A program made the translations under genes and the position numbers. Below the pieces are notes generated by a model. The model did not search any database and was not told the origin of the DNA. It worked only from the letters and a program-made list of their open reading frames with translations. From positions 5,248,001 to 5,312,000 of the forward strand of contig OZ252299.1 in assembly GCA_965250285.1 (NCBI GenBank): a stretch of DNA of 64,000 bases, written 5' to 3'. This document shows, piece by piece, positions 47,696-63,843 of the stretch (positions are counted from its first letter, which is position 1; each line of letters starts with the position of its first letter). This DNA is from Myxococcota bacterium. GTDB taxonomy: Bacteria; Myxococcota_A; UBA9160; UBA4427.

Positions 47696-49867
47696 ATGAA
47701 TTTCACGAATTCTAGTGACGGTACTCGTGACGATGGACCCCGCGCCGTGGAGCTGCCGCCGCCGGGGTTCCTGGCGCGCATCGGCGAGGCGGTCGGCCTG
47801 CGGGGCCCCGCCGGTTCGGCCCACTACGACGCCCTGAGCGGCGACGCGCCGCCCTCGGTTGCCCGAGACTGGGTATTCGTGCTCGAGCAGATGAGCCGCG
47901 GGGCCGGTCTGCGGGCCTGCCGGATCGACGGCATGGGTGGGCACGTGCTCGATGCCCTGGGACCGCGCCGTGCGCTGGCCACCTGGCACCCCGAGCATGG
48001 GTGGGTCGGCCTCGTGACCGACGGCCGTGCTCGCCCGCGACTCATTCGCGGTCACGCGCGCGACGAGGTCATCGATCGGGCCTCGTTCGAGCGTCGATTC
48101 GGCGACGTGCTCGATTCACCCGGGTGCTGGATCCAGATCGAGCCGAGCCTGGCCGACGCGTCCCGGGGCGCGGGCGCGCGCCCCAAGCCCGCGGCGCGAC
48201 TGCTCTCGTTGCTTCGGGCAGACCGGTCCGACATCGCCACCGTCGTGGTCTACGCGGTCTTCGCCGGTTTGATGACGCTGGCGACGCCGATCGCCGTCCA
48301 GCAGCTGGTCAACAGCGTCGCCTTCGGTGGGCTCGTGCAACCCGTCGTCGTGCTGGCGATCCTGCTCATGGCCGGGCTCGGGTTCGGCGCCCTGATCTCG
48401 GCGCTGCAGGCCGTCGCGGTCGAGCTGATCCAGCGCCGTATCTTCGTGCGCGCCTGTGCCGACCTCGCCGATCGACTCCCGCGCGTCGATGCGGGGGCCG
48501 TCGAAGGCGGCTTCGGTCCCGAGCTCGTCAACCGTTTCTTCGATCTCGTGACCGTGCAGAAGACGGGTGCGAGTCTGCTGCTCGCAGGCACGTCCCTCGT
48601 GCTGCAGACCCTCGTCGGTCTCACGATCTTGAGCTTCTACCACCCGCTGATGCTCGGCTTCAGCGTCTTCCTCATTCTGGCCATCGCTTTCGTGATGGGC
48701 GTGCTCGGGCGTGGCGCGACGGGCACCGCGATCGCCGAGTCGAGCGCCAAGTACAAGCTCGCCGCCTGGATGGAGGAGCTCGCGCGCGAGCCGGGCCCCT
48801 TCAAGACGCGCAGCGGTCGCCGCTGGGCCGCTCAGCGCGCCGACGATCTCGCCGTGAGCTGGATCGAAGCCCGGCGACAGCACTTCCGCATCGTACTGCG
48901 CCAGGTCGTCGGGTCGCTGGTGCTGCAGGTCGTCGCGGGGACGGCCGTGCTCGGGATCGGCGGCATGCTCGTCGTGAACGGTCAGCTGACACTCGGTCAG
49001 CTGGTCGCTTCCGAGATCATCGTCGCGATCGTGGTCGCGGCCGTCGCGCGCCTCGGCAAGCTGCTCGAGAGCTACTACGACCTGCTCGCCGCGATCGACA
49101 AGTTCGGGACGCTGCTCGACCTGCCGCTCGAGCGCATCGACGGCGATGCGCCGTCGGAGGGCGGCGGCGCAGCCGCGATCGAGCTGCGCGAGGTGGTGAT
49201 CGACGGGCCGCCCGGTGCGACCGCCACGCCGCGTCTCAGCACCCGCGTCGCCCCCGGCGATCGCGTCGCGCTGCGCGGCGGCAATGCGGCGGTGCGCGGC
49301 GAGCTGCTGCGAGCGATCGTCGGCCTCTCTGCTCCGGCGCGCGGTTCGATCCACTACGACGGCGACGAGCTCGATGCCCTCTACCTCGAGGCGCTGCGCG
49401 AGTCGGTCATGGTCGTGGGCGAGCCCGAGCTGCACACGGGCACGATCCTCGACAACCTGCGCGTGGCCCGGCCGGGTGCACCGCGGGCCGCCATCGACGA
49501 GGCCCTCGAACGCGTGGGTCTGGCCGAGATGATCGATTCGCTCCCGCAGGGCGTGCGCACGCGGATCGAGCCTTCGGGTTGGCCTCTCGACGCGGGGGCA
49601 CAGCGTCAGCTGATGCTCGCGCGGGCGGTGCTCGCTTCGCCCCGGGTGCTCTGCGTCGACGACGCCCTCGTGCACCTCGACGCCGAGTCGCGCATTCGGG
49701 CGCTCGAGGTGCTCACCGATCCGGCGGCGCCCTGGACGCTGTTCCTGTCGTCTCACGAGCCGACCGATCTCGCAGCCTGCACGCACGTGTTCGATCTCGA
49801 TACGGGTGAGCTGCGGGCGAGCGTGAACGTCGTGCCCGATGACACCCCTCGCTCGGTCACGGGCTGA
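47696..49867 (+). CDS. T1SS-type ABC transporter (permease + degenerate NBD)
   Basis: PELVNRFFD and GQLTLGQLVASE membrane-domain motifs; GTILDNL; Walker A, signature and Walker B motifs degenerate. Confidence 0.85.
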   Translation: MNFTNSSDGTRDDGPRAVELPPPGFLARIGEAVGLRGPAGSAHYDALSGDAPPSVARDWVFVLEQMSRGAGLRACRIDGMGGHVLDALGPRRALATWHPEHGWVGLVTDGRARPRLIRGHARDEVIDRASFERRFGDVLDSPGCWIQIEPSLADASRGAGARPKPAARLLSLLRADRSDIATVVVYAVFAGLMTLATPIAVQQLVNSVAFGGLVQPVVVLAILLMAGLGFGALISALQAVAVELIQRRIFVRACADLADRLPRVDAGAVEGGFGPELVNRFFDLVTVQKTGASLLLAGTSLVLQTLVGLTILSFYHPLMLGFSVFLILAIAFVMGVLGRGATGTAIAESSAKYKLAAWMEELAREPGPFKTRSGRRWAAQRADDLAVSWIEARRQHFRIVLRQVVGSLVLQVVAGTAVLGIGGMLVVNGQLTLGQLVASEIIVAIVVAAVARLGKLLESYYDLLAAIDKFGTLLDLPLERIDGDAPSEGGGAAAIELREVVIDGPPGATATPRLSTRVAPGDRVALRGGNAAVRGELLRAIVGLSAPARGSIHYDGDELDALYLEALRESVMVVGEPELHTGTILDNLRVARPGAPRAAIDEALERVGLAEMIDSLPQGVRTRIEPSGWPLDAGAQRQLMLARAVLASPRVLCVDDALVHLDAESRIRALEVLTDPAAPWTLFLSSHEPTDLAACTHVFDLDTGELRASVNVVPDDTPRSVTG

Positions 49868-49896
49868 GCGCTGCTTTCGACGGAGTCGACCCCATC

Positions 49897-51198
49897 ATGA
49901 CGCACGAAGAGAACCTCTCTCGCACCGCCTCGAGCTTGATGCTCGTCGAATCGACGTCGGCCCTGCGCCACCTGGCGCAGCTGCTCGTGCTGCTGCTGCT
50001 GCTCGTGTTGCTGGGGCTGATCGCGACGCCCTGGCAGCAGAACGTGACGGGCGCCGGTCGCGTCGTCGCGTTCGAGCCCTACGACCGCATCCAGTCGATC
50101 GCGGCGCCCGTCGACGGACGGATCCGGCAGACGTGGGTCGTCGAGGGCTCTCGCGTGAAGGCGGGCGATCCGATCATCGAGATCGTCGACAACGACCCGG
50201 CCATCCTCGAGCGTCTGCAGGCCCAGCGCGACGCGATGGGCGTGCAGCTCGAGGCCGCACGCGCGAAGGCCGTCATCTACGACGACCAGATCGAGGTGCT
50301 GGGGCATGCCCGTGAGATGGCGACGACCGCGGCCGAGAATCAGGTCGAGGTCGCCGAAGCCTCGGTCGAGTCGGCCCGCCACGGCCTCGACGCGGCCAAG
50401 GCCGCCGCGCAGCAGGTCGAACTGAACTTCGTACGGCAGAGGGAGCTGCTCGCCGAAGGGCTCGCATCCGAGCTCGAGTACGAGATGGCCCAGCGTACGC
50501 ACCTCGAGGCCCGGGCGCGCGTCGAGCAGGCGCGCGAGGCGTGGAACGCGGCGCGCAACGACCAGGAGGCGCGCGAGGCCGAGCTCGGCCAGGTCGACAC
50601 CGAGGCGCGCGCCGGCATCGAGACGGCGAAGGCGCTGCGACAGTCGGTCTCGGTCGAGATCGCCGCGCTCGACGAAGAGGTCGCCGGTCTCGACATGCGC
50701 ATTGCGCGGCAGAACACCCAGCTGCTGACGGCGCCGCGCGACGGCACCGTGCTGCGCGTCTTCGCGGCCCCGGGCGCCGAGCTGGTGAAGGCGGGTGAGC
50801 CGCTCGTGTCGCTCATTCCCGACACGGCGAGCCGCGCCGTCGAGCTCTGGGTCGACGGCAACCACGTGCCCCTCGTCCAGGAGGGACGCCCCGTGCGCCT
50901 CCAGTTCGAGGGCTGGCCGGCGGTTCAGTTCGCCGGCTGGCCGTCGGTCGCGGTCGGGACGTTCGGGGGCCGCGTCGCCCTCGTCGACTCGAGCGCCGAT
51001 GCCGCGGGCCGCTTCCGCACCCTCGTGGTGCCCGATGGCGACGACGAACCGTGGCCCGAACCCGATCTGCTGCGGCAGGGCGCTCGGGCCTCGGGCTTCG
51101 TGCTACTCGACCGGGTGAGCCTCGGCTACGAGCTGTGGCGACAGGCCAACGACTTCCCGCCCACCGCGGCGATGCGAAGCACCCGGAGTGAGTCTTGA
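49897..51198 (+). CDS. HlyD-family membrane fusion protein
   Basis: TPWQQNVTGAG, APVDGRI, a long coiled coil and VRLQFEGWPAVQF.GWP. Confidence 0.9.
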   Translation: MTHEENLSRTASSLMLVESTSALRHLAQLLVLLLLLVLLGLIATPWQQNVTGAGRVVAFEPYDRIQSIAAPVDGRIRQTWVVEGSRVKAGDPIIEIVDNDPAILERLQAQRDAMGVQLEAARAKAVIYDDQIEVLGHAREMATTAAENQVEVAEASVESARHGLDAAKAAAQQVELNFVRQRELLAEGLASELEYEMAQRTHLEARARVEQAREAWNAARNDQEAREAELGQVDTEARAGIETAKALRQSVSVEIAALDEEVAGLDMRIARQNTQLLTAPRDGTVLRVFAAPGAELVKAGEPLVSLIPDTASRAVELWVDGNHVPLVQEGRPVRLQFEGWPAVQFAGWPSVAVGTFGGRVALVDSSADAAGRFRTLVVPDGDDEPWPEPDLLRQGARASGFVLLDRVSLGYELWRQANDFPPTAAMRSTRSES

Positions 51199-52700
51199 GA
51201 CAACTGTCCAGCGAAGTGATCCGCCTGCTCGCGATCGCGACCATGGTGTCGTGGTTCTGCGTGTCGGTCGCACCGAGTTCGGCTTCGACACCGACGGGCA
51301 TCGAGCCCCTCGACCTCGATACCGTCCTCGGCTCGGCCGATGTCCACTTCCCAGCCCTCGTCGTCGCCGAGCTCGAGCGCGGCGTGCGCGCCGAGCAGCT
51401 TCGATCGAGTCGCGGCGGGTTCGATACGCGCCTGGGGCTCGAGGGCGAGGCCCGCCCGGTCGGCTTCTACGAGAACATCGGCGGCGACGTCGAGCTCGAG
51501 CAGCCGACTGCGCTCTGGGGCACGCGCTTCTTCGGTGGGTATCGATACGGCGGGGGTGACTACCCCTCGTACCTGGGCGGTGAGCTGACGGACGAGTCGG
51601 GTGAGATTCGCGGCGGTCTAGAAGTGCCGCTGCTGCGCGGTGGCCCGATCGACTCCGTCCGCGCGGGGATTCGGCGGAGTCGCATCAACCTCGACCAGGT
51701 CGAGCCCGACGTGGCGATTCAGCGTCTCTCGGTGCGCCGCGATGCGGCGCGGGCCTACTGGCAGTGGGTTTCTCGAGGTCTGGTGCTCGACGTGGCCGAG
51801 CGCCTGCTCGAGGTCGCCGTCGATCGCCAGGGGCAGATCGAAGGTCGTGTGCGCCGCGGCGCCGAGGCCGAGATCGACCTGGTCGACAACGAGCGCCTCA
51901 TCGTCGACCGACAACTTCGCCTACGAGGGGCCGAGCGAGACTTCGAGCAGGCCATGGCCACGCTGTCGCTGTATCTGCGCGACGCCGCGGGTGCGCCCGT
52001 CGTCGTCGATCGCAGCTACCTGCCCGCGACCTTCCCCGAAGAGGAGGCGCTCGATCGCGACGCGGTCGAGATCGACCTCGAGGCGGCGCAGGCGCGTCAC
52101 CCGGCGATTCGTCGTCTCCTGCTCGAGATCGATCGTCTCGGCGTCGACGCCTCGCTGGCGCGTAACGATGTGCTGCCCGAGGTCGACCTGAAGGTCGAGG
52201 CGTCGCGCGACTTTGGTGGGGCGGTACCCGGCATCGATACGAGCGGCAGTCTCTCGGCCGCCCCGCGTGCCGAGACCGAGGTGAAGGCGATGCTGCGGGT
52301 CGAATGGCCCTTGCAGCGGCGCGAAGCCCGCGGACGGCTCGCCGTCGCTCGCATCAAGTCGTCCCAGACCGAGCGCCGGTTGCAGCTCGAACGCGAGAAG
52401 ATCGGGGTCGAGGTGCAGAAGGCCGTCGCAAGCATCGGCGCAGCGTACGACCAGACTCGATCTGCGCGACACAACGTCGCGTTGGCCGAGCGGCTTCGTG
52501 TCGCCGAAGAGCGGAAGCTGTCGCTCGGTACGAGCAACCTGATCGACGTCAACATCCGTGAGCTGCAGGCGGCTTCGGCCGCGCTGCTGTTGATCGAGGC
52601 ACAGGCCGACTACTTCGAGGCGCTCGCCGACTACGAGGCGGCGTCGGCGCGAACGTTCGTCGGTGACGTCAGCGCGCCCGCGGCGGCCCCTGAATCATAG
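51195..52700 (+). CDS. TolC-family outer membrane protein
   Basis: Signal peptide; VPLLRG, AARAYW, E.RKL.LG.S.L.DVN.RE; overlaps hlyD. Confidence 0.88.
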   Translation: MRQLSSEVIRLLAIATMVSWFCVSVAPSSASTPTGIEPLDLDTVLGSADVHFPALVVAELERGVRAEQLRSSRGGFDTRLGLEGEARPVGFYENIGGDVELEQPTALWGTRFFGGYRYGGGDYPSYLGGELTDESGEIRGGLEVPLLRGGPIDSVRAGIRRSRINLDQVEPDVAIQRLSVRRDAARAYWQWVSRGLVLDVAERLLEVAVDRQGQIEGRVRRGAEAEIDLVDNERLIVDRQLRLRGAERDFEQAMATLSLYLRDAAGAPVVVDRSYLPATFPEEEALDRDAVEIDLEAAQARHPAIRRLLLEIDRLGVDASLARNDVLPEVDLKVEASRDFGGAVPGIDTSGSLSAAPRAETEVKAMLRVEWPLQRREARGRLAVARIKSSQTERRLQLEREKIGVEVQKAVASIGAAYDQTRSARHNVALAERLRVAEERKLSLGTSNLIDVNIRELQAASAALLLIEAQADYFEALADYEAASARTFVGDVSAPAAAPES

Positions 52701-52734
52701 AGACCAGCGAAGAAAAGACGACACATTTTCTATT
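52697..52734 (+). promoter_or_regulatory. Putative LysR/NhaR box
   Basis: ATAG-N7-CGAA, then N16 and TTCTATT; AT-rich. Confidence 0.5.
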
Positions 52735-52784
52735 TTTCGAATCGGGAAGGTTCGCCGATATTGCAAGGTGAGGAGGCTACGGCC

Positions 52785-53093
52785 ATGGAGTCGACCATCA
52801 GTTCAGGCGAGTTCTACGTGAGTCACTGGATGGAGTCGTTCATCGACACGACGATCCGGTTCGCGATCTGGCGCGCCGAGCCTTCGGTCGAGCACGTCGC
52901 GGTCGGACTCTCCCGTCGCCCCGACGGGCGCGTGAGCTGTCGGCTCGACGCCTGGCGCTCCGACGGATCGACCCTCTCGGCGACGGGCATCGACCGCGAA
53001 GCCTTCGCCGCGATCCAGGGCGCGGCCGATCGGCTCGAGGTGGCGCTCTTTGCGCCGACGGAGCAGTCGAGCGAGGCATGCGTTGCGGCCTGA
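52785..53093 (+). CDS. HPF/RaiA (S30AE)-like small protein
   Basis: GAGGAGG RBS; beta-alpha-beta-beta-beta-alpha pattern ending in AFAAIQGAADRLEVAL. Confidence 0.6.
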   Translation: MESTISSGEFYVSHWMESFIDTTIRFAIWRAEPSVEHVAVGLSRRPDGRVSCRLDAWRSDGSTLSATGIDREAFAAIQGAADRLEVALFAPTEQSSEACVAA

Positions 53094-53181
53094 GCGAGCG
53101 GATCGAAGCCCCGGTTCGACGGGCACCCCGCCGAATCGCCGTGGGCCGTCGTCGGGCCGCGGATCGGGTCTCGATGCCGGT

Positions 53182-54096
53182 CTAGAGCAGACCCAGCTCG
53201 GCGGCCGCTTCGACGACGGCGGCCACGGCCGGGTGCATGATGCGGCGCTCGACGGTCACCGCATAGAGGTACTCACGCACCTCTTCGGTCTCGCCGACGA
53301 GCTGCACGCCATGCGTCCTTCGGACCTCGTCGGCGACGACGATCGGCGAGGCGAAGATGCCGGCTTCATGAGCGCCGAACACCTTCATGAGGGCCGAGTC
53401 TTCGATCTCGCCCACGATGTGGGGACGCACGTCCAGCTTGGCGAGCCACTCGTCGAGCGAGTGACGAAGGGCCACGTTCGATGTCGGCAGGAGCATCGGC
53501 GCGCCGTTCAGGCTCTCGGGGAACCGGCGCCGGTACTTGCGAGCGAGGGCGGGCGACGCGAAGAAGCCGATGCCGCAGTCGCCGAGGCTGTGGTTGTAGG
53601 CCTTGACGCGCACCTGGCCGCGAAAGGGCACGTCGGCCAACACCATGTCGTACGTCTGTTGCGCCAACGCGGCGATGAGGTCGTCGGTCTTGCCTTCGTG
53701 CAGCACGAGCTGCACGGGCTCGTCGAGCTTGAGTGCGATGTCGAGCAGGTTGTAGGCGACCAGCTTCGGCACTGCGTCGGCGATGCCGACGATCAACTTC
53801 GACGGGCGGTTGGTCGGTCGCCCGCGCAGGGCGTCCATCATCTCACGCCCCGTCGAGAAGATCTCATCGGCGTAGCGGTAGACGAGCTGCCCCGACTCGG
53901 TGAGGACGAGGTTGCGGCCGTCGCGCATGAAGAGCTTCTCGCCGAGCGAGTCCTCGAGCTTGCGGATCTGACCGCTGAGTGTGGGCTGCGCGAGGCGCAG
54001 CACCTCGGCGGCACGCGTCACGCTGCCCTCACGGGCCACCGTGTAGAAGTAGAGGAGATGGTGGTAGTTGAGCCACTCGATGCCCCGTTCCTCCAT
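53182..54096 (-). CDS. nhaR: LysR-family activator, NhaR type
   Basis: WLNYHHLLYFYTVAREGSV, QPTLSGQI, VGIADAVPKL, GEIEDSALMKVFG and ERRIMHPAV. Confidence 0.88.
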   Translation of the reverse strand: MEERGIEWLNYHHLLYFYTVAREGSVTRAAEVLRLAQPTLSGQIRKLEDSLGEKLFMRDGRNLVLTESGQLVYRYADEIFSTGREMMDALRGRPTNRPSKLIVGIADAVPKLVAYNLLDIALKLDEPVQLVLHEGKTDDLIAALAQQTYDMVLADVPFRGQVRVKAYNHSLGDCGIGFFASPALARKYRRRFPESLNGAPMLLPTSNVALRHSLDEWLAKLDVRPHIVGEIEDSALMKVFGAHEAGIFASPIVVADEVRRTHGVQLVGETEEVREYLYAVTVERRIMHPAVAAVVEAAAELGLL

Positions 54097-54483: not shown

Positions 54484-56109
54484 CTAGTCGGCGAGATCCT
54501 CGAGGCGGAGCGCCTGGGTCGGGCAGTACTTCACGGCGCGCTCGACCTTGGCGCGCAGCTCGGCGGTGGGTTCTTCTTCGATCAGCGCGACTTTGTCTTC
54601 GTCGTTCACGCGCTCGATGTCGAACACCTCGGGCGCCTCGCCCATGCAGACCGCATGCCCCTGGCAGAGGTCGAGGTCGACGCACACGCGGTACGGCTTC
54701 GCGGGCGAGACCGAGTCGGCGAACCCGGTGGTGGCCGCAGGGGCCGTCGATGCGGTGCGCCGTCGATACCGAAGCATGCACGGCTGCCTGACCGCGACGA
54801 CCATCTTCGAGAGGTCGTTGCCGTAGCTCGATAGCGGCTGCGAGAGTTCGAACTCGTAGTTGCGCAGCACGATCGAGAAGATCGCCTTGAGCTGCATCAA
54901 CGCGAAGGCCGCGCCGACGCACTTGTGTCGGCCGGCGCCGAACGGGATCCAGGCGAAGGGCTGCCGATCTTCGGCTCGGTCGCCCAGGTAGCGCTCGGGG
55001 TCGTACGTGTCGGGGTCGGGGAAGTGCTCGGGCAGCCGATGTGAGACCACGGTCGACGTGGCCACGGTCTTGCCGGCCGGGATCACGTAGTCGCCGAAGC
55101 GAAAGTCGTGCATCACCTTGCGCATCAGGATCGTGAGCGGCGGATGAAGCCGCAGAGATTCCTTGATCGCACACTCGAGCGAAGGGATCTCGCGCAGCGC
55201 CTGAAACGACACATCACGTCCATCGGCGTAGATCGCGTCGAGCTCGCTGGTCACCCGCTGGATCCAGTCGGGATGCATCAGCAGATCGAGCATCGTCCAC
55301 GAGGCCACGGCCGACGAGGTGTGGTGCCCTGCGAACATCAGCGAGATGAACATGCCGGTGATCTGAGCCGGCGTGTATCGCGGGTTGCCGTCGCCGTCCT
55401 TCACGCCGCGGAGGATGTGGAACAGATCGCTGTATTCACCGCCTTCGCGGTCGCGCCGCTCGAAGATCGCTTCGATCTTCGCGACGATCGCGTGTCGCGC
55501 GCGGTCCCGGGCTCGCAGGGCCGGGAGCGGCAGGTAGGGGTTCACGTAGGCGAGTGCATCGGTGCCGCGCTCGAGGTCGTAGAAGAGCGGCACGTAGTCG
55601 GCGCTCAGCTCGTCGCGAAACTGCTTGCCGACGAGGCACGTGCTCGACGTATAGAGCGTGAGCTCCGAGAAGAAGTCGAGGGCATCGATCTCGCCCGATT
55701 CGCCCCAGCGCTCGATCATGGCCTCGGTCTCGGCGGCGATGTGCTCGGCGTGTCCGCGCATGAACTTGTCGCGCAGAGACTGGTTGCGCATCGCCTGCTT
55801 GCGCTGCTCGGGGGTCGCATCGAATACGACCCCCTCGCCGAAGACCGGCTTCATGAAGGGATAGGCCGCGGCCTGGTCGAGTTGCTCGTCGGGCGCTCGA
55901 AAGAACGCCTCCTGAGCGTCGTTGCCCGTCAGCAGGACGATCTCGTTGCCGGCGAGGTTGAACTCACCGACCTCGCCGCACTCGTCGCGCACGCGCTGCA
56001 TGAAGGCGAGCGGGTCGCGCCGCAGCTCGAGCAGGTGGCCGATCAGCGGCCAGCCGCCCGATACGCGGGGCGGCGCCAGATCCTTCGAGAGGGGGGTCGC
56101 GGCGGCCAT
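54484..56109 (-). CDS. cyp51: CYP51-family cytochrome P450 (sterol 14alpha-demethylase-like) fused to a C-terminal [3Fe-4S] ferredoxin
   Basis: AYPFMKPVFGEGVVFDA (SRS1), MFAGHHTS (I-helix), KESLRLHPPL and WIPFGAGRHKCVG; Ala/Thr linker; CQGHAVC...CP ferredoxin at about 54487-54693; AGGAG RBS. Confidence 0.9.
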   Translation of the reverse strand: MAAATPLSKDLAPPRVSGGWPLIGHLLELRRDPLAFMQRVRDECGEVGEFNLAGNEIVLLTGNDAQEAFFRAPDEQLDQAAAYPFMKPVFGEGVVFDATPEQRKQAMRNQSLRDKFMRGHAEHIAAETEAMIERWGESGEIDALDFFSELTLYTSSTCLVGKQFRDELSADYVPLFYDLERGTDALAYVNPYLPLPALRARDRARHAIVAKIEAIFERRDREGGEYSDLFHILRGVKDGDGNPRYTPAQITGMFISLMFAGHHTSSAVASWTMLDLLMHPDWIQRVTSELDAIYADGRDVSFQALREIPSLECAIKESLRLHPPLTILMRKVMHDFRFGDYVIPAGKTVATSTVVSHRLPEHFPDPDTYDPERYLGDRAEDRQPFAWIPFGAGRHKCVGAAFALMQLKAIFSIVLRNYEFELSQPLSSYGNDLSKMVVAVRQPCMLRYRRRTASTAPAATTGFADSVSPAKPYRVCVDLDLCQGHAVCMGEAPEVFDIERVNDEDKVALIEEEPTAELRAKVERAVKYCPTQALRLEDLAD

Positions 56110-56125
56110 GGCGGCTCTCCTGGTG

Positions 56126-56992
56126 TCACGCGGTGTGGATGAACTCGTCGGCAAAGCGCCGAATCGCGTCGATCTTCCGGTCGACGTCGTCCTCGGTGAT
56201 GCCGTACATGAGCCACGGCACGGTGGTCAGGTGCGTCACGCCGACGTCCTCCATCTCGCGGTAGTGATCGCGGGTGAAGCCGTCTCGCAGCGCCGCGCTG
56301 ATGCCGAAGGGTCGATCGGCCCGGTCGCTCTCGGCGCGCCAGCCCTGCATCTTGCGAGCCGCCTCGCGGATCTCGTCGCGCGTATTGATCTCGCTCACCC
56401 ACCCGTCGAGACGCGTCGCCGCGCGGCGCATGGCCCGCTCCGACGTGCCTCCGCCCCACATCGGAACGGGCCGGGTGGGGACGGGGCTGATTCGAAGCGG
56501 CTCGAAGTCGTAGAACTCGCCGTGATGCTCGACATCGCCCCCGGCGTGCAGCTGCCGGACGATCTCGATGCACTCCTCGAGCCGCCGGCCGCGTTGTTCG
56601 AACGGCACGCCGAGCAGATCGAACTCCTCGCGCATCCAGCCCGCACCGAGGCCGAGAATGAGCCGCCCGCCCGCCAGGATATCGACGGTGGCGATCTCTT
56701 TCGCCGCGACGACCGGGTGACGCAGACTCATCAGGTAGATGCTCGTCAACACGTGCAGACGCTCGGTGGCGGCGGCGATGGCGCCGGCGGCGATCATCGG
56801 ATCGGGCCACGCGGTGTCGCGATCCCAGCGCGGCTCCCCGCTCGACGTGTAGGGATACGGCGTCTTCAGATCGGCCGGGTAGATCAGGTGATCCGACACC
56901 ACCACGCTGTGGAAGCCGGCCTCGTCGGCGGCCCGGGCGAGGGGGATCCACTGATCGGGCGCATTGAATGCGAGGGCGATCGAGAACTGCAT
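56126..56992 (-). CDS. LLM-class, probably F420-dependent, oxidoreductase (Rv2161c/TIGR03619-like)
   Basis: GFHSVVVSDH, YPY, WPDP, LRHPVVAAK, GLGAGWMREEF and RRAA..LDGW. Confidence 0.85.
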   Translation of the reverse strand: MQFSIALAFNAPDQWIPLARAADEAGFHSVVVSDHLIYPADLKTPYPYTSSGEPRWDRDTAWPDPMIAAGAIAAATERLHVLTSIYLMSLRHPVVAAKEIATVDILAGGRLILGLGAGWMREEFDLLGVPFEQRGRRLEECIEIVRQLHAGGDVEHHGEFYDFEPLRISPVPTRPVPMWGGGTSERAMRRAATRLDGWVSEINTRDEIREAARKMQGWRAESDRADRPFGISAALRDGFTRDHYREMEDVGVTHLTTVPWLMYGITEDDVDRKIDAIRRFADEFIHTA

Positions 56993-56999
56993 CGATGGC

Positions 57000-57039
57000 A
57001 GCGTAAAATATTGAAATGGTCATTTCAAATTTTTATACT
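57000..57039. promoter_or_regulatory. Overlapping divergent sigma70 promoters sharing a palindromic TetR operator
   Basis: TTGAAATG-GT-CATTTCAA (57011-57028); + strand TTGAAA-17-TATACT; - strand TTGAAA-17-TACGCT. Confidence 0.8.
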
Positions 57040-57068
57040 GCGACTCGTGAATCGTGGTTGGAGGCGCC

Positions 57069-57746
57069 GTGGCAGCAAGAAGTCGTCGAGGTGGAGGGCG
57101 CGCGGGCGCCAAGAAGGCGCCGGCCAAGCGCAAGAGTCGGGTCGTCGAGGCGCGGCGCGAGCTCTACCGCCAGCTGATCATCGAGGGGGCCGAGCGCGCC
57201 TTCGCCGAGCGGGGCTACGACGACACGAAGATGGAGCACATCGCCAGCGAGTCGGGTCTTTCGATGGGCACCGTCTACAGCGTGTTTCCGGGCAAGGCGA
57301 AGATCTTCTCGGCGGTGCACGAGGCCGCCGATGCCGAGCTGCTGCGGCGCGGACTCGAGTGCTTCGACGAAGACGAGCCGCCGCTCGAGCGTCTGCTGGC
57401 CGGCGTGCGGGCGACGGTCGAGTACTTCATCGAGCACCCCGACTTTCTGCGCATGGAACTCAATGAAGGCCTCGCGTGGAGCGCCGAGACCGCGGCGCGC
57501 GGCGGAAGCCGCAGCCGCGCGCGCCGACGGGGTCTCGAGCTGATGAAACGCTCGGTCGCCAACTGTGTGGAGGCGGGCTCGTTCATCGCCGCCGAGCCCG
57601 AGCTGGTCGCGCGAATGATGATCGCGGTGTACCAGGTGCAGCTCGCCTACTGGCTCGAGGGTGGCATGAAGCGACCCGCCGCCGACGTGCTCGAAGACGT
57701 GACCGAGCAGGTGAAGCGCTCGTTCTGCGCGCCGGGCGTCTCATGA
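57069..57746 (+). CDS. TetR/AcrR-family regulator
   Basis: AERAFAERGYDDTKMEHIA.ESGLSMGTVYSVFPGK HTH; GGAGG RBS before GTG 57069. Confidence 0.9.
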   Translation: MAARSRRGGGRAGAKKAPAKRKSRVVEARRELYRQLIIEGAERAFAERGYDDTKMEHIASESGLSMGTVYSVFPGKAKIFSAVHEAADAELLRRGLECFDEDEPPLERLLAGVRATVEYFIEHPDFLRMELNEGLAWSAETAARGGSRSRARRRGLELMKRSVANCVEAGSFIAAEPELVARMMIAVYQVQLAYWLEGGMKRPAADVLEDVTEQVKRSFCAPGVS

Positions 57747-59203
57747 ACAGCGCCGACTTTCGTCCACTCGCGCGACGCGAAGTCGAACGCTGGGACGCCG
57801 AGCACGACGTCGTCGTCGTCGGCGAGGGCATCGCGGGCGGTGCGGCGGCGATCGAAGCGGCACGGGCGGGCGCCGATACCGTCGTGCTCGAGCGCATGAC
57901 GCGGGGAGGTGGGGCGACCTCGCTCTCGACGGGCATCACCTACTTCGGTGGTGGAACCGAGATCCAGAAGGCCTGCGGCTTCGAGGACAGCGTCGAAGAC
58001 ATGAAGGCCTTCGTCGAGCTCGCCGCGGGCGCCCAGGCCGACCCCGAGCGCGTGCGCCTCTACTGCGAAGGGAGCCTCGAGCACTTCGACTGGTTCCGCG
58101 CGCTCGGCGTCGAGTTCAAGCCCACGTTCATCGAAGAGAAGACGACGCATCCGTTCACCGACGACTGCCTGACGTTCAGCGGCAACGAGGAGGCGTGGCC
58201 TCACAACGCACAGACCCGCCCCGTGCCGCGCGGCCACAAGCCCGCACGAGAAGGGGAGGCCGGCGGTCTCTTGATGGAGGCCGTGCTCGCGGGCGTGCGG
58301 GAGGCCGGTGCCCGCGTCGTGAACGAGTGCCGAGTCGAGCGGCTGGTCGTCGACGACGGCGGACGCATCGTGGGCGTCGCCGGTCGCCGCGAGGGCACGC
58401 CCTTCTTCGTGGGCGCGCGCCGGGGCGTGGTGCTCGCGACGGGAGGGTTCGTCTTCAACGACGAGATGCTCGCGAAGCACGCGCCGCAGCTGCTTCAGTG
58501 CAACTACAAGGTCGGCACCGAGGGTGACGATGGCTCGGGGATCAACATGGGCGCGGCGGCCGGGGGCGAGACGGTCAACATGGCCGAGGGCCTCGTTCTC
58601 AACGCGTACTACCCACCCGCTTCGCACCTGAAGGGTGTGCTCGTCGATGCGAACGGCCAACGATTCGTCAACGAAGACTCGTATCTCGGTCGCACCAGTG
58701 ATGCGATCGTCACCCGCGCCGAGGGCCGCGCGTGGCTGATCGTCGACGACGAGATCCACGGTCAAACCCAGGCGATGCACCGCATCGCAGCCGTCGAAGA
58801 GAGCTGGGAGGCCCTCGAGCGAGCGCTCGAGCTGCCCGAGGGTGCGCTCGTGCAGACCATGCACGGGTACAACGCGCACGCGGCGACGGGCCGCGACCCG
58901 CTCTTTCACAAGGCGCCGAGATACCTGAAGCCGCTCGTCGACCCGCCCTTCGGCGCGCTCGACTGCAGCACGAGCGGCTCGATCTTCGGCGTGTTCACCC
59001 TGGGTGGGCTCTCGGTGGCGGCGACGGGCGAGGTGCTCGACCACGCCGGCCGCGCCGTGCCGGGTCTGTTCGCAGCGGGCCGCTGTACGGCCGGTCTCTG
59101 CCGCGAGGGGCGCAACTACGCGAGCGGTCTGTCGATCGGCGACGGCAGCTTCTTTGGCCGACTCGCGGGGCGCTCCGCGGCTCGAATGGAGCCCTGCCCG
59201 TGA
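57743..59203 (+). CDS. FAD-dependent oxidoreductase, 3-ketosteroid Delta4(5alpha)-dehydrogenase-like
   Basis: DVVVVGEGIAG, GGGTEIQKACGFEDS, ARRGVVLATGGF, NEDSYLGR, FTLGGL and YASGLSIGDGSFFGR; ATGA overlap. Confidence 0.75.
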   Translation: MNSADFRPLARREVERWDAEHDVVVVGEGIAGGAAAIEAARAGADTVVLERMTRGGGATSLSTGITYFGGGTEIQKACGFEDSVEDMKAFVELAAGAQADPERVRLYCEGSLEHFDWFRALGVEFKPTFIEEKTTHPFTDDCLTFSGNEEAWPHNAQTRPVPRGHKPAREGEAGGLLMEAVLAGVREAGARVVNECRVERLVVDDGGRIVGVAGRREGTPFFVGARRGVVLATGGFVFNDEMLAKHAPQLLQCNYKVGTEGDDGSGINMGAAAGGETVNMAEGLVLNAYYPPASHLKGVLVDANGQRFVNEDSYLGRTSDAIVTRAEGRAWLIVDDEIHGQTQAMHRIAAVEESWEALERALELPEGALVQTMHGYNAHAATGRDPLFHKAPRYLKPLVDPPFGALDCSTSGSIFGVFTLGGLSVAATGEVLDHAGRAVPGLFAAGRCTAGLCREGRNYASGLSIGDGSFFGRLAGRSAARMEPCP

Positions 59204-61245
59204 GCGGGTACACCCGTCTGCTCTCGCCCGCTCGCATCGGCTCGATGGCGCTGCGCAACCGCGTCGTGATGTCGCCGATGGAGACCTGCTACGCGACGCG
59301 TGACGGACAACCGTCCGATCGGAGCATCGCGTACTTCGAAGAGCGCGCCCGGGGCGGTGTCGGGCTGATCACGCTGGGCGCCTGCACGGTCGATGCCGCA
59401 CATCGAGAGGTGCCGAACTCGATCGACTTCGGTCGCGACGAGGTGATCGAGGCGCATCGCGCACTGACCGAGCGGGTGCACGCACACGGCGCGAAGATCC
59501 AGCCCCAGCTCGTGCACCCGGGGCCGGACGGGCTCGCGCCCTACCTCTCGAACACGCCGAACGTCGGCCCTTCGGTGATCCCGTCGTACCTCACCGGCAT
59601 TCCGTCGCGTGAGCTCGATGCCGACGAGATCCCGGCCATCGTCGATACGTACGCAAAGGCCGCGCTACGTGTGCGCGAGGCGGGCTACGACGGCATCGAG
59701 CTGCACGCGGCCCATGGCTACATGTTGCTGGGCTCGTTCCTCACGCCGACGCGCAATCGCCGGTCCGACGCCTACACCGGCCAGACGGCCGAGGGCCGCA
59801 CGCGGCTGATCATCGAGGTGCTGCACGCGTTGGCCGGTGCGGTCGGGCGCGACTTTCCGATCACGCTCCGCATCTCGGGCTACGAACGGGTGCCCGGTGG
59901 CCGGGGCATCGCCGACACCCAGGCCATCGCCCCGTCGCTCGTCGAGGCCGGGGTCGATGCGTTTCATGTGAGCGGCGGCGTGATCGACCCCCTGACGAGC
60001 CAGATGGTGACGGGCTCGCACTATGCACCGGCGCACAATGTGGGTGCGGCAGAGGCGGTCAAGCAGGTCGTCGACGTGCCCGTGATCGCGGTCGGGCGCA
60101 TCCACGATCCCGATCTCGCCGAACGGATCCTCACCGAGGGCCGTGCGGATCTGATCGCCATGGCGCGTCCGCTGCTCGCCGACGCCGAGATCGTCACCAA
60201 GCTCGAGTCTGGGCGCGCCCGCGAGATTCGCCGCTGCATCTCTTGCCAGAACTGCATCGAGTCGATGGAGACCGGCCGCATGAGCTGCGCCGTCAACGCG
60301 CGCACGGGTCGCGAGGCCGAGATCTCGCTCGAACCGGTGAGCGAATCGAAGCGGGTGATCGTCGTCGGCGGCGGTCCCGGCGGCCTCGAAGCGGCTCGTG
60401 TCGCGGCGCGCCGTGGGCATCGCGTCTCGCTCTTCGAGCGCGGCGCCGCCCTCGGCGGCTCGCTCGTGATGGCCTCGACGGTGCACCCCGACAACACACC
60501 GCTGCTCGACTTCCTGTGTGCCGACGTCGCACGGGCGGGTGTCGAGGTGCACCTCGAAGAGCACCTCGATGCGGCCTCGGTGGCGCGCCTCGCGCCCGAC
60601 GCCGTCATCGTGGCCACCGGCGGCCAGGTGGTCGCCGCGCGGATCGAGGGGGCCGACGCCGATCACGTCTGGACCGGCCCGTTGCTGCGCGAGCTGATCG
60701 CGGGGCGCGTCTCCGATGCGGCCGCGAAGAAGCTGCCCGGGTGGCAACGTGCCGGGCTCGCGCTGCTCGGGGCGCGGCTGCAGCGTTGGATGACCCCCGC
60801 CCGGTGGCGCGCCCTCGCCCGGTGGTGGCTGCCGCTCGGTCACCGCGTCGTGATCGTGGGGGGCGATCTCGCCGCGACCGAGCTCGCCGAGTGGCTGGCC
60901 GAGCTCGGGCGTCGCGTGAGCGTGATCGAAGCCGGTTCAGACATCGCGCACGAGGTCGGGCTCAAGCGCCGGACCGAGCACATGGAGCGGCTCGACAGAC
61001 TCGGCGTGACGGTGCACACGCAGACCCACGTCGCACGGATCGAGCGCGGCGTGGTTCGGCTCGAGGGCGGCGCGCAGATTGAAGCCGACTCGGTGATCGT
61101 GGCGGGCGAGCCCGCACCCGACACCACGCTCTTCGACGCGCTCAAGGGCAGCGCCCCCGACGTCATCGCCGTCGGTGACTGCACCGGTCTCGGCTTGATC
61201 CGCAAGGCCATCGAAGAGGGCGCCCGCGCGGGCGCGTCGATCTAA
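59200..61245 (+). CDS. NADH:flavin oxidoreductase (OYE barrel + Fe-S + FAD domains; FadH/BaiCD-like ene-reductase)
   Basis: LRNRVVMSPM, IELHAAHGY, CISCQNC...C and VIVVGGGPGGLEAA; GTGA overlap. Confidence 0.88.
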   Translation: MSGYTRLLSPARIGSMALRNRVVMSPMETCYATRDGQPSDRSIAYFEERARGGVGLITLGACTVDAAHREVPNSIDFGRDEVIEAHRALTERVHAHGAKIQPQLVHPGPDGLAPYLSNTPNVGPSVIPSYLTGIPSRELDADEIPAIVDTYAKAALRVREAGYDGIELHAAHGYMLLGSFLTPTRNRRSDAYTGQTAEGRTRLIIEVLHALAGAVGRDFPITLRISGYERVPGGRGIADTQAIAPSLVEAGVDAFHVSGGVIDPLTSQMVTGSHYAPAHNVGAAEAVKQVVDVPVIAVGRIHDPDLAERILTEGRADLIAMARPLLADAEIVTKLESGRAREIRRCISCQNCIESMETGRMSCAVNARTGREAEISLEPVSESKRVIVVGGGPGGLEAARVAARRGHRVSLFERGAALGGSLVMASTVHPDNTPLLDFLCADVARAGVEVHLEEHLDAASVARLAPDAVIVATGGQVVAARIEGADADHVWTGPLLRELIAGRVSDAAAKKLPGWQRAGLALLGARLQRWMTPARWRALARWWLPLGHRVVIVGGDLAATELAEWLAELGRRVSVIEAGSDIAHEVGLKRRTEHMERLDRLGVTVHTQTHVARIERGVVRLEGGAQIEADSVIVAGEPAPDTTLFDALKGSAPDVIAVGDCTGLGLIRKAIEEGARAGASI

Positions 61246-61267
61246 CCGAATCAATCGGAGACATCGC

Positions 61268-61720
61268 GTGATCTACTACGAAGACTACGAGATCGGCGCG
61301 AAGCGTCGGATGGGCTCGGTCACGCTCTCGAAGGAGGAGATCGTCGACTTCGCGCGCAAGTTCGATCCACAGCCGTTTCACATCGACGAGGCGGCAGCCG
61401 AGGCCTCGATCTTCGGTGGACTGACCGCGTCGTCGTGCCACACGTTCGCGCTGACCGGTCTGATCAATGCGCAGAACATCGAGAAGTCGGCGGTGGTCGC
61501 GAACCTGGGTGCCGATTCGCTGAGATTTCCCGAGCCGGTGCGACCCGGCGACACGCTGACGCTCACGAGCGAGTGCACTGAGAAGCGCGTCTCGAAGTCG
61601 CGCCCTTCGATCGGCATCGTCGCGTGCCGGACGTGCCTCGAGAACCAACAGGGCGTGATCGTGATGGACGTGATGATGCGCTTCATGGTGCAGCTGCGCG
61701 CAGGGGCCGAAGCCGGGTAG
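61268..61720 (+). CDS. MaoC-family dehydratase
   Basis: FARKFDPQPFHIDE, FGGLTAS and LRFPEPVRPGDTL. Confidence 0.88.
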   Translation: MIYYEDYEIGAKRRMGSVTLSKEEIVDFARKFDPQPFHIDEAAAEASIFGGLTASSCHTFALTGLINAQNIEKSAVVANLGADSLRFPEPVRPGDTLTLTSECTEKRVSKSRPSIGIVACRTCLENQQGVIVMDVMMRFMVQLRAGAEAG

Positions 61721-61721
61721 C

Positions 61722-62594
61722 TCAGTCGGGGTCGACTGGCGCGTCGCGTTGGGCGCGTTCGCGCGCGGTGGCCACCATCTCCTTCGTGACCGGATCTTGC
61801 GCTCGGACCCCTCGCCGCAGCATCGATGGCCAGAGCGCGCGCAGCAGCCGCGCCGCCACGAGGGCCGGGTTGCGCCGCGGGATCGTGACTTCACGCTTGC
61901 CCTTTTCGATGACGTCGAGCACGCCCTCGGCAACCGCCTCGGGCGGATAGAGCCGGCCCGAGTAGTGCCCGGGCTGGTCGAGCTTCGACCAGATCTCGGT
62001 GTCGATCGGCCCCGGGTGGACCAGGCCGACGTGAATGTCGGTCTCGTGCAGATCGTTCCAGAGCCCCTCTGTGAACGCGTTCATCGCGGCCTTCGACGCG
62101 GCGTAGACCGACTCGTGGGTCGGGACGACCTTCGCAGCGATCGATGAGACATTCACGATCGTGCCCCCGCCCTGGCGCAGGAAGATCGGAATCGCGCGCA
62201 GCGTGATCGTGGCCATCGACGTGAAGTTCACCGCGATGGCGCGGTCGACGTCGCCGGGCGTCGTCTCGAAGATCTGTTTGTGCATGGGGATGGCTGCGTT
62301 GTTCACGACCACGTCGAGGCGGCCGCCTTCCTCGACGACCATCTCGGGGAGCGATGCGGCGAAGGCCGGGTCGGCGAGGTCGCCCGGCAGCACGCAGACG
62401 TCGGCGTTGAAGGTGCGCCCCTCCTCGGCGAGAGCTTCGAGCCGGTCTTCGCGTCGCGCGGTGACGGCGACGCGGTAGCCGCGGTGTGCCAGCCGAAGCG
62501 CGGTGGCGCGACCGATCCCCGACGAAGCGCCCGTCACGAGCGCGACCGGCGCCGGCTCTCCATCGTGGGTTGCATAGATGGGCGCATCGCTCAT
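61722..62594 (-). CDS. Short-chain dehydrogenase/reductase
   Basis: TGASSGIG, NNAA, NVSS, YAASK and PGPIDT. Confidence 0.9.
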   Translation of the reverse strand: MSDAPIYATHDGEPAPVALVTGASSGIGRATALRLAHRGYRVAVTARREDRLEALAEEGRTFNADVCVLPGDLADPAFAASLPEMVVEEGGRLDVVVNNAAIPMHKQIFETTPGDVDRAIAVNFTSMATITLRAIPIFLRQGGGTIVNVSSIAAKVVPTHESVYAASKAAMNAFTEGLWNDLHETDIHVGLVHPGPIDTEIWSKLDQPGHYSGRLYPPEAVAEGVLDVIEKGKREVTIPRRNPALVAARLLRALWPSMLRRGVRAQDPVTKEMVATARERAQRDAPVDPD

Positions 62595-62748: not shown

Positions 62749-63843
62749 ATGCCGTCGACGATGACCCAGCGCCGTCCCTTGCGTCGCGATGCCGAGACCG
62801 GTCGCGTCGAGATCCTCGATCAGACCCGACTGCCCCACGAGGTCGTGTGGGTCGAGCTCGGAGATCTGGCTTCGGCCGCCGAGGCGATCCGTTCGATGCA
62901 GGTTCGGGGCGCACCGTTGATCGGTGCGGTCGCCGCTTACGGGATCGCGCTGGCCCTCGATGCCGACGCGAGCGACGCAGCGCTGGCCGAGGCGACGGCG
63001 ACCTTGCAGGCGACGCGCCCGACCGCCGTCAATCTCGCCTGGGCGCTCGATCAGGCGAACCAGGCGGTGGCCGACGTGGCGCCCGATGCGCGCGCCGGCG
63101 TCGCGTACGCGCTCGCCGATCGGATCTGCGATGACGAGGGTGCGCGCTGCGCAGCGATCGGGCGGCATGGCGTCGAGCTGATTCGAAAGGTGGCCGAGAG
63201 CCGATCGGCGGGGCCGGTGCACGTGCTGACCCATTGCAACGCGGGCATGCTCGCGACGTTCGACTACGGCACGGCGCTGGCCCCGATCTACATGGCCTTC
63301 GAGGAAGGCATCGACGTTCATGTCTGGGTCGACGAGACGCGGCCGCTCGATCAGGGCAGTCGACTCACGGCGTGGGAGCTGGCCGACGCGGGCGTTGCGC
63401 ACACGGTCATCGTCGACAACGCGGGCGGGCACCTGATGCAGCACGGACAGGTCGATCTGTGCATCGTCGGCAGCGATCGCACCACGGCCCACGGCGACGT
63501 CTGCAACAAGGTCGGCACCTACCTGAAGGCGCTGGCCGCGTTCGACAACGGCGTGCCCTTCTATGCCGCACTCCCGACGAGCACGATCGACTGGTCGATG
63601 AAGGACGGGGTCGCCGAGATCCCGATCGAGGAGCGCGCACCCGACGAGGTGCGCGACAGCGTCGGCGTCGACGAGGCCGGCGAGCTGCATCGGGTTCGGC
63701 GCTTCGCTGCATCGACGCCGGTCGCGAACTACGCGTTCGACGTGACGCCGGCGCGGCTGGTGACGGGGTTGATTACCGAGCACGGGGTTGTGGGGGCTTC
63801 GGCCGCGGGGGTGCGGGGGTTGCGGGAGCGGGGGCTTAGCTAG
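62749..63843 (+). CDS. mtnA: S-methyl-5-thioribose-1-phosphate isomerase
   Basis: ILDQTRLP, MQVRGAPLIG, TRPTAVNL, LTHCNAG, DETRP, NKVGTY and AFDVTP; start 62749 or 62761. Confidence 0.93.
   Translation: MPSTMTQRRPLRRDAETGRVEILDQTRLPHEVVWVELGDLASAAEAIRSMQVRGAPLIGAVAAYGIALALDADASDAALAEATATLQATRPTAVNLAWALDQANQAVADVAPDARAGVAYALADRICDDEGARCAAIGRHGVELIRKVAESRSAGPVHVLTHCNAGMLATFDYGTALAPIYMAFEEGIDVHVWVDETRPLDQGSRLTAWELADAGVAHTVIVDNAGGHLMQHGQVDLCIVGSDRTTAHGDVCNKVGTYLKALAAFDNGVPFYAALPTSTIDWSMKDGVAEIPIEERAPDEVRDSVGVDEAGELHRVRRFAASTPVANYAFDVTPARLVTGLITEHGVVGASAAGVRGLRERGLS

Follow-up and report, generated by a model that had tools for sequence, protein, structure and literature searches.

A CYP51–ferredoxin gene joined to a TetR and flavoenzyme module in a Myxococcota genome: a candidate entry point to sterol catabolism

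The stretch of DNA analysed here (the window) covers 64,000 nucleotides of a Myxococcota bacterium (GTDB lineage Myxococcota_A; UBA9160; UBA4427; GenBank assembly GCA_965250285.1, contig OZ252299.1, positions 5,248,001 to 5,312,000). It holds a compact locus in which cyp51, the gene for a sterol 14α-demethylase, is fused to a ferredoxin gene (fdx) and lies divergent from genes for a TetR-family regulator and two flavoenzymes (Table 1). The host genome (G000) is a single contig of 6.25 Mb with 68.6% GC and a completeness of 95.4%. The nearest named relatives of its genes come from metagenome-assembled genomes of Myxococcota. Related genomes carry handles such as G001, G003 and G005. Genes called here with a home-made hexamer caller have approximate start positions. 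Three sequencing runs, all from a single study, are listed as carrying this DNA, and no RNA run is among them. We read the locus as an inducible entry module that would prepare scavenged 14α-methyl, 5α-sterols for catabolism by a non-standard route through rings A and B. From gene content we hold this to be probable, with ample room for doubt.

The locus and its shared palindrome

An earlier note on this DNA had listed seven genes here. All seven are open reading frames at the positions and on the strands of Table 1, and Pfam and NCBIfam bear out their families. In the left arm the LLM gene precedes cyp51-fdx by 16 nt. The genes for TetR, the FAD dehydrogenase and the Fe-S flavoenzyme are joined, as the note had said, by 4-nt overlaps (ATGA at 57743-46 and GTGA at 59200-03). 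The convergent SDR gene is probably not part of the module, since no orthologue lies beside the module in any locus examined and its best matches reach at most 37%. G001 has other genes in its place.

The 76-nt divergent spacer contains a perfect 8+2+8 palindrome, TTGAAATG-GT-CATTTCAA. An arm of equal length arose in 18 of 3000 dinucleotide shuffles of the spacer. We searched for a genome-wide regulon and found no second operator at up to two mismatches in the 6.25-Mb host genome; two sites with three mismatches exist. Two divergent promoter-like sites overlap the palindrome and use its arms as −35 boxes. G001 preserves both arrangements, though its inner bases differ. The left site, which was read by eye and is absent from the output of the consensus scan, lies 7 nt before the LLM ATG, and its transcript would be leaderless.

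In G020, which belongs to another genus, a site that agrees in 17 of the 18 palindrome bases precedes a TetR-homologue gene at a locus without cyp51. The other 17 regions compared, each holding a TetR homologue, gave weaker matches of 9–15 of 18. On this basis the palindrome most likely belongs to this TetR family, and the TetR protein is likely a repressor of both arms. The single operator that the note had proposed for both arms is thus upheld as a sequence feature. TetR homologues are found in 26 of the 61 genomes of the order. Against the KstR model the window protein scores only 20 bits.

Table 1. Features of the locus, with positions in the window.
Feature	Position	Strand	Basis
CYP51B-type sterol 14α-demethylase and ferredoxin fusion, 541 aa	54484-56109	-	PF00067 and Fer4_15/13; PDB matches
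LLM-class oxidoreductase, predicted F420-dependent, 288 aa	56126-56992	-	TIGR03619
Left-arm promoter-like site, TTGAAA-17-TACGCT	57000-57028	-	read from sequence; same layout in G001
Putative palindromic operator, overlapping both −35 boxes	57011-57028	.	perfect 8+2+8 palindrome
Right-arm promoter-like site, TTGAAA-17-TATACT	57011-57039	+	10/12 consensus match; kept in G001
TetR-family regulator, 225 aa	57069-57746	+	PF00440; GGAGG precedes GTG start at 57069
FAD dehydrogenase, 3-ketosteroid Δ4(5α)-dehydrogenase family, 486 aa	57743-59203	+	4AT0; PRK07121.1-3 over cut-off
Fe-S flavoenzyme of the long OYE type, 681 aa, predicted enone reductase or dehydrogenase	59200-61245	+	PF00724 and PF07992
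MaoC-like hydratase, 150 aa, genus-level accessory gene	61268-61720	+	PF01575; same place in G001 only
SDR, 290 aa, convergent	61722-62594	-	no NCBIfam subfamily over cut-off

Enzymes encoded in the two arms

The best PDB matches of the P450 are mycobacterial CYP51 (554 bits) and the CYP51fx of Methylococcus capsulatus (PDB 6MCW; 524 bits over residues 12–536). The first match not named CYP51 or sterol demethylase scores 192 bits. The I-helix sequence FAGHHTSS (GHHTS motif), the B′-helix YPF...FG and the heme cysteine are kept, and Phe85 aligns to F78 of mycobacterial CYP51. At the F78 position, 47 of the 48 rows of the alignment keep the CYP51 signature residue (48 of 86 matches were used, with mycobacterial rows thinned and duplicates dropped). 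We take the phenylalanine at this position to set a preference for obtusifoliol. By these sequence criteria the protein is a CYP51B; C14 demethylation itself is reported for homologues only (PMC7947880, PMC6469627). Obtusifoliol is given as the preferred substrate of the mycobacterial enzyme that carries F78 (PMC7947880). The M. capsulatus fusion resembles the window protein over its full length, but serves sterol synthesis there.

The LLM protein scores 218.6 bits against TIGR03619 (cut-off 166.9). It has no close solved structure (best PDB match 63 bits). The earlier note had suggested that F420 may be involved, and cofD, cofE and cofH are all over cut-off in the host. The LLM may take part in the steroid pathway.

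The FAD dehydrogenase matches PDB 4AT0 at 392 bits, with the next PDB match at 135. The sequence motifs quoted in the note are present and align to 4AT0, and Y314, Y459 and S461 align to residues 339, 486 and 488 of the 4AT0 chain, which we take to be its catalytic Tyr/Tyr/Ser set. In a tree of 44 rows (proteins of at least 420 aa from the fetched loci) the enzyme lies inside the Δ4(5α)-ketosteroid dehydrogenase clade (37 rows, support 100/100) and apart from KstD. Relatives adjoin KstD in G004 and hsaC paralogues in mycobacteria. Formation of the Δ4 bond on 5α-3-ketosteroids is predicted from family membership, and the Rhodococcus jostii enzyme 4AT0/TesI is the best structural relative. A deep-branching paralogue of the same family lies at L080:7377-9005; its G045 relative adjoins KstD and an OYE cluster.

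The Fe-S flavoenzyme is a long Old Yellow Enzyme (OYE) with the residues H169-A-A-H172-G-Y174 and a CxxCxxC-x10-C motif. The H-A-A-H-G-Y pattern is that of enone-binding Old Yellow Enzymes. It is present in 113 of 120 homologues, and the 2,4-dienoyl-CoA and naphthoyl-CoA reductases have other residues at these positions. The note had called the protein an Fe-S flavin ene-reductase and pointed to BaiCD/BaiH-type flavoenzymes. The architecture stands: an FMN barrel, the Fe-S motif, an FAD/NAD domain and a steroid gene context are shared with BaiCD/BaiH, 5β-Δ4-KSTD1 (Nov2c019) and CasH, the last two compared by description and not by direct sequence comparison. A BaiCD assignment does not (380 against a cut-off of 825, with no NCBIfam model over its cut-off), and the context is cyp51, not bile acids. 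Generic OYE clusters were the only matches in the ESM Atlas. Homologues of both flavoenzyme families are reported to form Δ4 bonds (PMC8044976, PMC8399759). A second long OYE of the host (L084:7573-9693, 5.853 Mb) is 59–62% identical to sphingomonad plasmid enzymes, and its relatives adjoin cyp51 in G008 and G013.

Linkage of cyp51, bsr and the OYE gene across genomes

The strongest new result is a link between the OYE gene and cyp51 that spans two phyla. Among the best 80 named loci of at least 315 relatives, cyp51 lies within 8 kb of the OYE orthologue in 49, of which 48 follow the gene order seen in mycobacteria, cyp51-fdx-bsr-(adhB)-OYE. The typical mycobacterial order is tetR-cyp123-SDR-cyp51-fdx-bsr-adhB-OYE-Rv0760c. 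The gene after the OYE, Rv0760c, is ketosteroid-isomerase-like, and a homologue is also found in the host. We also drew 61 genomes evenly from Mycobacterium. Of the 21 that carry the OYE gene (threshold E≤1e-150), 19 have it on the strand of cyp51 and no more than about 4.5 kb away. Of the other two, one has the genes on separate contigs and one has a broken OYE gene and no cyp51 found. This broken copy (G071:C11:193104-194912) contains three stops and belongs to the only sampled carrier without detected cyp51. A separate arrangement occurs in G004, where LLM, OYE, LLM, bsr and a cyp51 fragment share one 7.8-kb contig. The pairing thus recurs in at least three settings: the mycobacteria (kin, counted as one lineage), G000 with G001 and G005, and G004.

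In the literature searched, whose coverage is incomplete so that absence is unproven, we found no description of this locus or of an OYE inside a cyp51 operon. The same incomplete coverage applies to the tie with a Δ4(5α)-family enzyme and an F420 LLM, and to steroid catabolism in this order, neither of which was found. The main text of PMC6593523 does not mention cyp51.

Of the 61 genomes of the order, 48 have a cyp51 match at E≤1e-60. We compared neighbourhoods of up to 20 kb around the strongest 40 of 52 matches (39 genomes), many of which end at contig edges. Common neighbours are Bsr (27 of the 40 loci), a second TetR type (23) and an Rv0770-like dehydrogenase (20), followed by a CYP123-like P450 (16), aldA (12) and a PRK07775 SDR (10). 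The Rv labels of these neighbours, aldA apart, are ones we presume to apply. Two other neighbours stand out. A 430-aa protein without a Pfam or NCBIfam match (L046:11490-12782; host homologue L083:8129-9439) occurs in 11 of the 40 loci, often right after bsr, and is a candidate new sterol enzyme. An NAD-dependent epimerase-family gene (L050:7534-8547), with a weak SdmB match (102 against a cut-off of 600), occurs in seven and may be linked to C4 demethylation.

In the host, the gene for the 8,14-reductase Bsr, the usual partner of cyp51, lies 3.5 Mb from the window cyp51. At 1.791–1.796 Mb (L071:11201-15625) we find SDR, aldA, a free ferredoxin gene and bsr in that order. A gene of the second TetR type diverges from them, and cyp51 is absent. 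The gap between aldA and the ferredoxin gene is 24 nt with no P450 between, so this is the usual cyp51 module minus cyp51. G001 shows aldA, fdx and bsr likewise without cyp51 (L231:7040-9328). Bsr is reported to turn the CYP51 product into a Δ8(14) sterol and to occur in Mycobacteriales and uncultured Myxococcota (PMC13277303). The host protein has F36, Y42, Y77, Y79, D132 and D135, one off the published numbering Y37, Y43, Y78, Y80, D133 and D136, as compared without a direct alignment to the M. capsulatus protein. A Y37F change is tolerated in M. capsulatus 8,14-Bsr, according to PMC13277303. Partner genes elsewhere in the host are 83% (bsr), 75% (aldA), 72% and 50% (SDRs), 60% (cyp123-like) and 55–68% (Rv0760c-like) identical to the copies in relatives, and adhB only 35–39%. 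A ferredoxin reductase gene divergent from a CYP123-like P450 gene (L085:5980-8550, 3.026–3.029 Mb), 23 kb from the C/D-ring cluster described below, is a possible electron source for CYP51.

The closest described system is the mycobacterial cyp51 operon (Rv0767c–Rv0760c region), with tetR, cyp123, SDR, cyp51B1, fdx, 8,14-Bsr, adhB and Rv0760c (PMC13277303, PMC7947880). Its hosts also make no sterols, it has the same CYP51B type with a ferredoxin, and the OYE is common to a third of the sampled mycobacteria. The host of the window has homologues of bsr, aldA, the PRK07774 and PRK07775 SDRs, cyp123 and Rv0760c. Unlike the operon, its cyp51 is fused to the ferredoxin gene, stands under a different TetR and adjoins the F420-type LLM and the Δ4(5α)-family enzyme, which the operon lacks. 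Mycobacterial hosts have the 9,10-seco enzymes; this host does not. From its genes the window locus would work like the mycobacterial operon, but cyp51-fdx-bsr adjacency with cyp123, SDR and aldA is not found in G000.

The note had taken the seven genes for a candidate undescribed cluster. Conservation of all seven as one set is rejected, and the word undescribed goes too far. An LLM orthologue (at least 52% identity) is near cyp51 in 11 of the 40 loci and tetR in five. MaoC is near it only in G001 and the SDR in none. Several results weigh against our reading as well. Only two loci (G001 and G005) have the FAD enzyme near cyp51, and one has the OYE orthologue there (G005; in G001 a contig break lies between). 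An OYE paralogue of 38% identity is near cyp51 in two (G008 and G013). The tetR-linked cyp51 genes form a single clade (7 of 48 rows), so that the link of tetR and the FAD enzyme to cyp51 is one inherited event. In 10 of 25 loci, which were chosen for such matches, a TetR homologue stands at the head of an OYE/NTF2/LLM/FAD-enzyme cluster that lacks cyp51. The OYE is accessory in mycobacteria, since 59 of the 61 genomes have cyp51 and only 21 the OYE, and in 13 of the best 80 loci, mostly of Nocardioides type, it stands with LLM rather than cyp51. The host has 28 LLM homologues and five FAD enzymes with the Tyr/Tyr/Ser set, which is common to most of the family. The likeness to the Rhodococcus enzyme also stops short of orthology: by score and residue the FAD enzyme is not the orthologue of 4AT0, because a mycobacterial orthologue scores 773 bits, another host paralogue reaches 406, the enzyme falls in a separate Myxococcota subclade, and its His136 replaces the tryptophan of the solved enzyme's clade (presumably a pocket residue). 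The standard ring-opening genes are also missing, as set out in the next section.

Since the right arm also exists without cyp51, the window joins two modules. From the compared loci, a known CYP51-ferredoxin module is joined to a TetR/flavoenzyme module, and the genes do not form a single undescribed unit that is conserved as such. Published work already covers CYP51 fusions (PMC7947880) and the pairing of CYP51 with 8,14-Bsr in non-producers, including sterol degraders and uncultured Myxococcota (PMC13277303). A recurrent cluster of the second kind (L108-L117) runs TetR, OYE, NTF2, LLM and Δ4-family enzyme, with extra LLM genes and a second OYE, and has no cyp51.

The two modules could have a regulator in common yet serve different substrates. 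In that case cyp51 would merely have moved in, and the FAD enzyme with the OYE would be a 5α/5β pair that makes Δ4-3-ketones from saturated stanols or bile-type steroids. 5β-Δ4-KSTD1, CasH, BaiCD and BaiH are long OYEs described as forming Δ4 (PMC8044976, PMC8399759). The FAD enzyme is followed directly by the OYE, with no cyp51 nearby, in G003, in G052 and in six of the best 80 named loci, and the TetR-headed clusters without cyp51 fit such a pair. It would leave unexplained the OYE inside mycobacterial cyp51 operons, where the CYP51 substrates are 5α. The low BaiCD score also speaks against it, as do the sphingomonad plasmid homologues (unlabelled), which are only 34–38% identical to the window OYE and far closer to the other host paralogue. 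We consider this arrangement unlikely.

Steroid genes of the host and the proposed route

The note had found no sterol biosynthesis genes in the window, and this holds for the whole genome: no cyclase (PF13243) and no epoxidase (PF08491) match was found in the host assembly. We therefore reject a role in sterol biosynthesis, and a sterol substrate would be imported. We searched 120 proteins from a 120 kb mycobacterial cholesterol region (26 of them labelled via NCBIfam and PDB) against the host. Sterol side-chain genes are present at 39–66% identity. A syntenic C/D-ring cluster at 2.977–3.003 Mb (L222:6710-18865, L223:9158-12816) holds ipdAB, ipdC, echA20, fadE31/32, fadA6, SDRs, ipdF, fadE30 and fadD3, mostly at 48–67% identity, with four members over NCBIfam cut-offs. 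These names follow homology and gene order and are in part our assumption. The use of CYP51 without sterol synthesis and in a catabolic context, as the note proposed, agrees with this inventory.

Of the genes for opening rings A and B that the note named as a check, none is convincing in the host: KstD reaches 90 bits and 26%, KshA 30% identity, HsaA 263 against a cut-off of 450 (32%), HsaC 38 bits and 30% over 137 aa, and HsaD 29% at best. The genes found therefore do not account for complete mineralisation and leave A/B-ring cleavage unexplained. Five KshA_C Rieske proteins have no NCBIfam match at E≤1e-22 and can be assigned to neither KshA nor SdmA. KshB- and HsaA-like genes are also present, untyped. 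In a comparison with 2,3-seco steroid catabolism, which uses a Δ1-dehydrogenase and the molybdoenzyme AtcABC, the host has two xanthine-oxidase-family subunits, untyped, and no KstD-type enzyme.

The pattern is not peculiar to one assembly. Of the 61 genomes of the order, 47 have IpdA and 41 Bsr. HsaC is over cut-off in none (16 match at E≤1e-30), KshA reaches 44–46% identity in three (17 match at E≤1e-45), and KstD-like matches occur in 45, none over cut-off. Cyclase domains are found in 16 genomes, untyped. By hand tally of the 41 Bsr genomes, which are kin and not independent, 36 have IpdA, nine a cyclase-domain match and eight an HsaC-like match. IpdA without a KstD match occurs in eight genomes of four genera, again by hand tally. 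Judged by these genes, the order would be a steroid-degrading lineage without a known A/B-ring route.

Such a gene set would also suit remodelling of imported sterols without opening of rings A and B. The side chain would be eaten, the core kept or released, and the C/D-ring genes would serve cross-feeding on the indanedione acids of others. The missing KstD, KshA, HsaC and HsaD and the counts among relatives fit this idea, and reshaping of exogenous sterols by CYP51 and Bsr is proposed in PMC13277303. On the other side, the Rieske enzymes and the KshB- and HsaA-like genes leave candidates for ring opening, and most Bsr genomes also carry IpdA. Formation of a Δ4-3-ketone is the usual first step of catabolism and removes the 3-hydroxyl that is required in membranes. 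We regard remodelling as distinctly unlikely. Least probable of all, to the point of being remote, is a role on cyclic terpenoids or ketones that are not steroids, with CYP51 recruited to another lipid. PMC7947880 raises the idea that non-producers have recruited CYP51 to pathways other than those of sterols, and PMC8044976 reports an OYE tree in which steroid and non-steroid enzymes do not separate and three homologues inactive on bile salts. The near-invariant CYP51 signature speaks against it, as does the joint presence of Bsr, a ketosteroid-isomerase-like protein, a Δ4-family enzyme and the side-chain and C/D-ring genes.

We return to the entry module for scavenged sterols. The substrates would be sterols of the lanosterol or obtusifoliol type. 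With TetR on the palindrome, neither −35 box would be accessible until a steroid released the protein; the layout is seen in the DNA. CYP51-ferredoxin would then remove the C14 methyl group to give the Δ8,14-diene, and the remote Bsr homologue, which agrees at the six tested positions, would give the Δ8(14) sterol, both as published for homologues. The FAD enzyme would form the Δ4 bond once C3 is a ketone and C4 bears a hydrogen. A Δ4(5α)-dehydrogenase would be needed because 14α-methyl sterols have a 5α-hydrogen and no Δ5 bond, which closes entry by a Δ5-to-Δ4 isomerase. A 4,4-dimethyl sterol cannot form Δ4, so C4 demethylation would come first or the substrate would be 4-monomethyl or 4-desmethyl; none of the genes could be assigned to a C4 demethylase. 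These sterols also carry Δ8, and the Δ8(14) bond left over from it would have to go before the standard C/D-ring pathway could act.

The OYE, perhaps with the F420 LLM, would reduce the Δ8(14) or Δ7 bond once it is conjugated to a ketone. This single step we find quite possible, while leaning slightly against it. The preferred stage would be the 9-oxo seco or indanedione compound, where the C9 ketone makes Δ8(14) an enone; a 3-oxo-Δ4,6 diene, with the isomerase-like Rv0760c homologue, is the alternative. Known ring-opening routes converge on the indanedione, according to PMC5790920. Lanosterol-fed Mycobacterium made a C19 steroid that keeps Δ8(14) (cited in PMC13277303), which fits late removal of that bond. 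The side chain and rings C and D would go to the genes elsewhere in the host, with rings A and B opened by a route other than the standard 9,10-seco route. The locus and bsr together thus offer one candidate enzyme each for C14 demethylation, Δ4 entry and removal of the leftover bond. More speculatively, and in our view doubtful as a whole, the OYE would be the enzyme that removes the Δ8(14) bond left by CYP51 and Bsr, CYP51B operons including the mycobacterial ones would be a catabolic on-ramp for 14-methyl sterols, and the order would open rings A and B without KstD, KshA and HsaC and feed the C/D-ring pathway.

What CYP51B1 does in bacteria without sterol synthesis is called unclear in reviews (PMC6469627). 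The locus supplies it with named partners and with a sequence of reactions that can be tested. KshA and HsaC are named as survey markers in PMC5790920, and a widespread uncultured order with CYP51, Bsr and C/D-ring genes would escape surveys based on them. The findings are also relevant to what becomes of 14-methyl sterols in the environment, to the reading of Δ8(14) sterol biomarkers and to enzymes for steroid biocatalysis.

On either side of the locus (window positions 47747-54096 and 62749-63843) lie mtnA, the gene of an NhaR-type regulator and three genes assigned to export by their translations alone. None of these is conserved together with the module. At 46511-47308, 7 kb away from the locus, a sterol side-chain gene encodes an EchA19-like enoyl-CoA hydratase that is over the PRK07799 cut-off and 55% identical to the mycobacterial copy.

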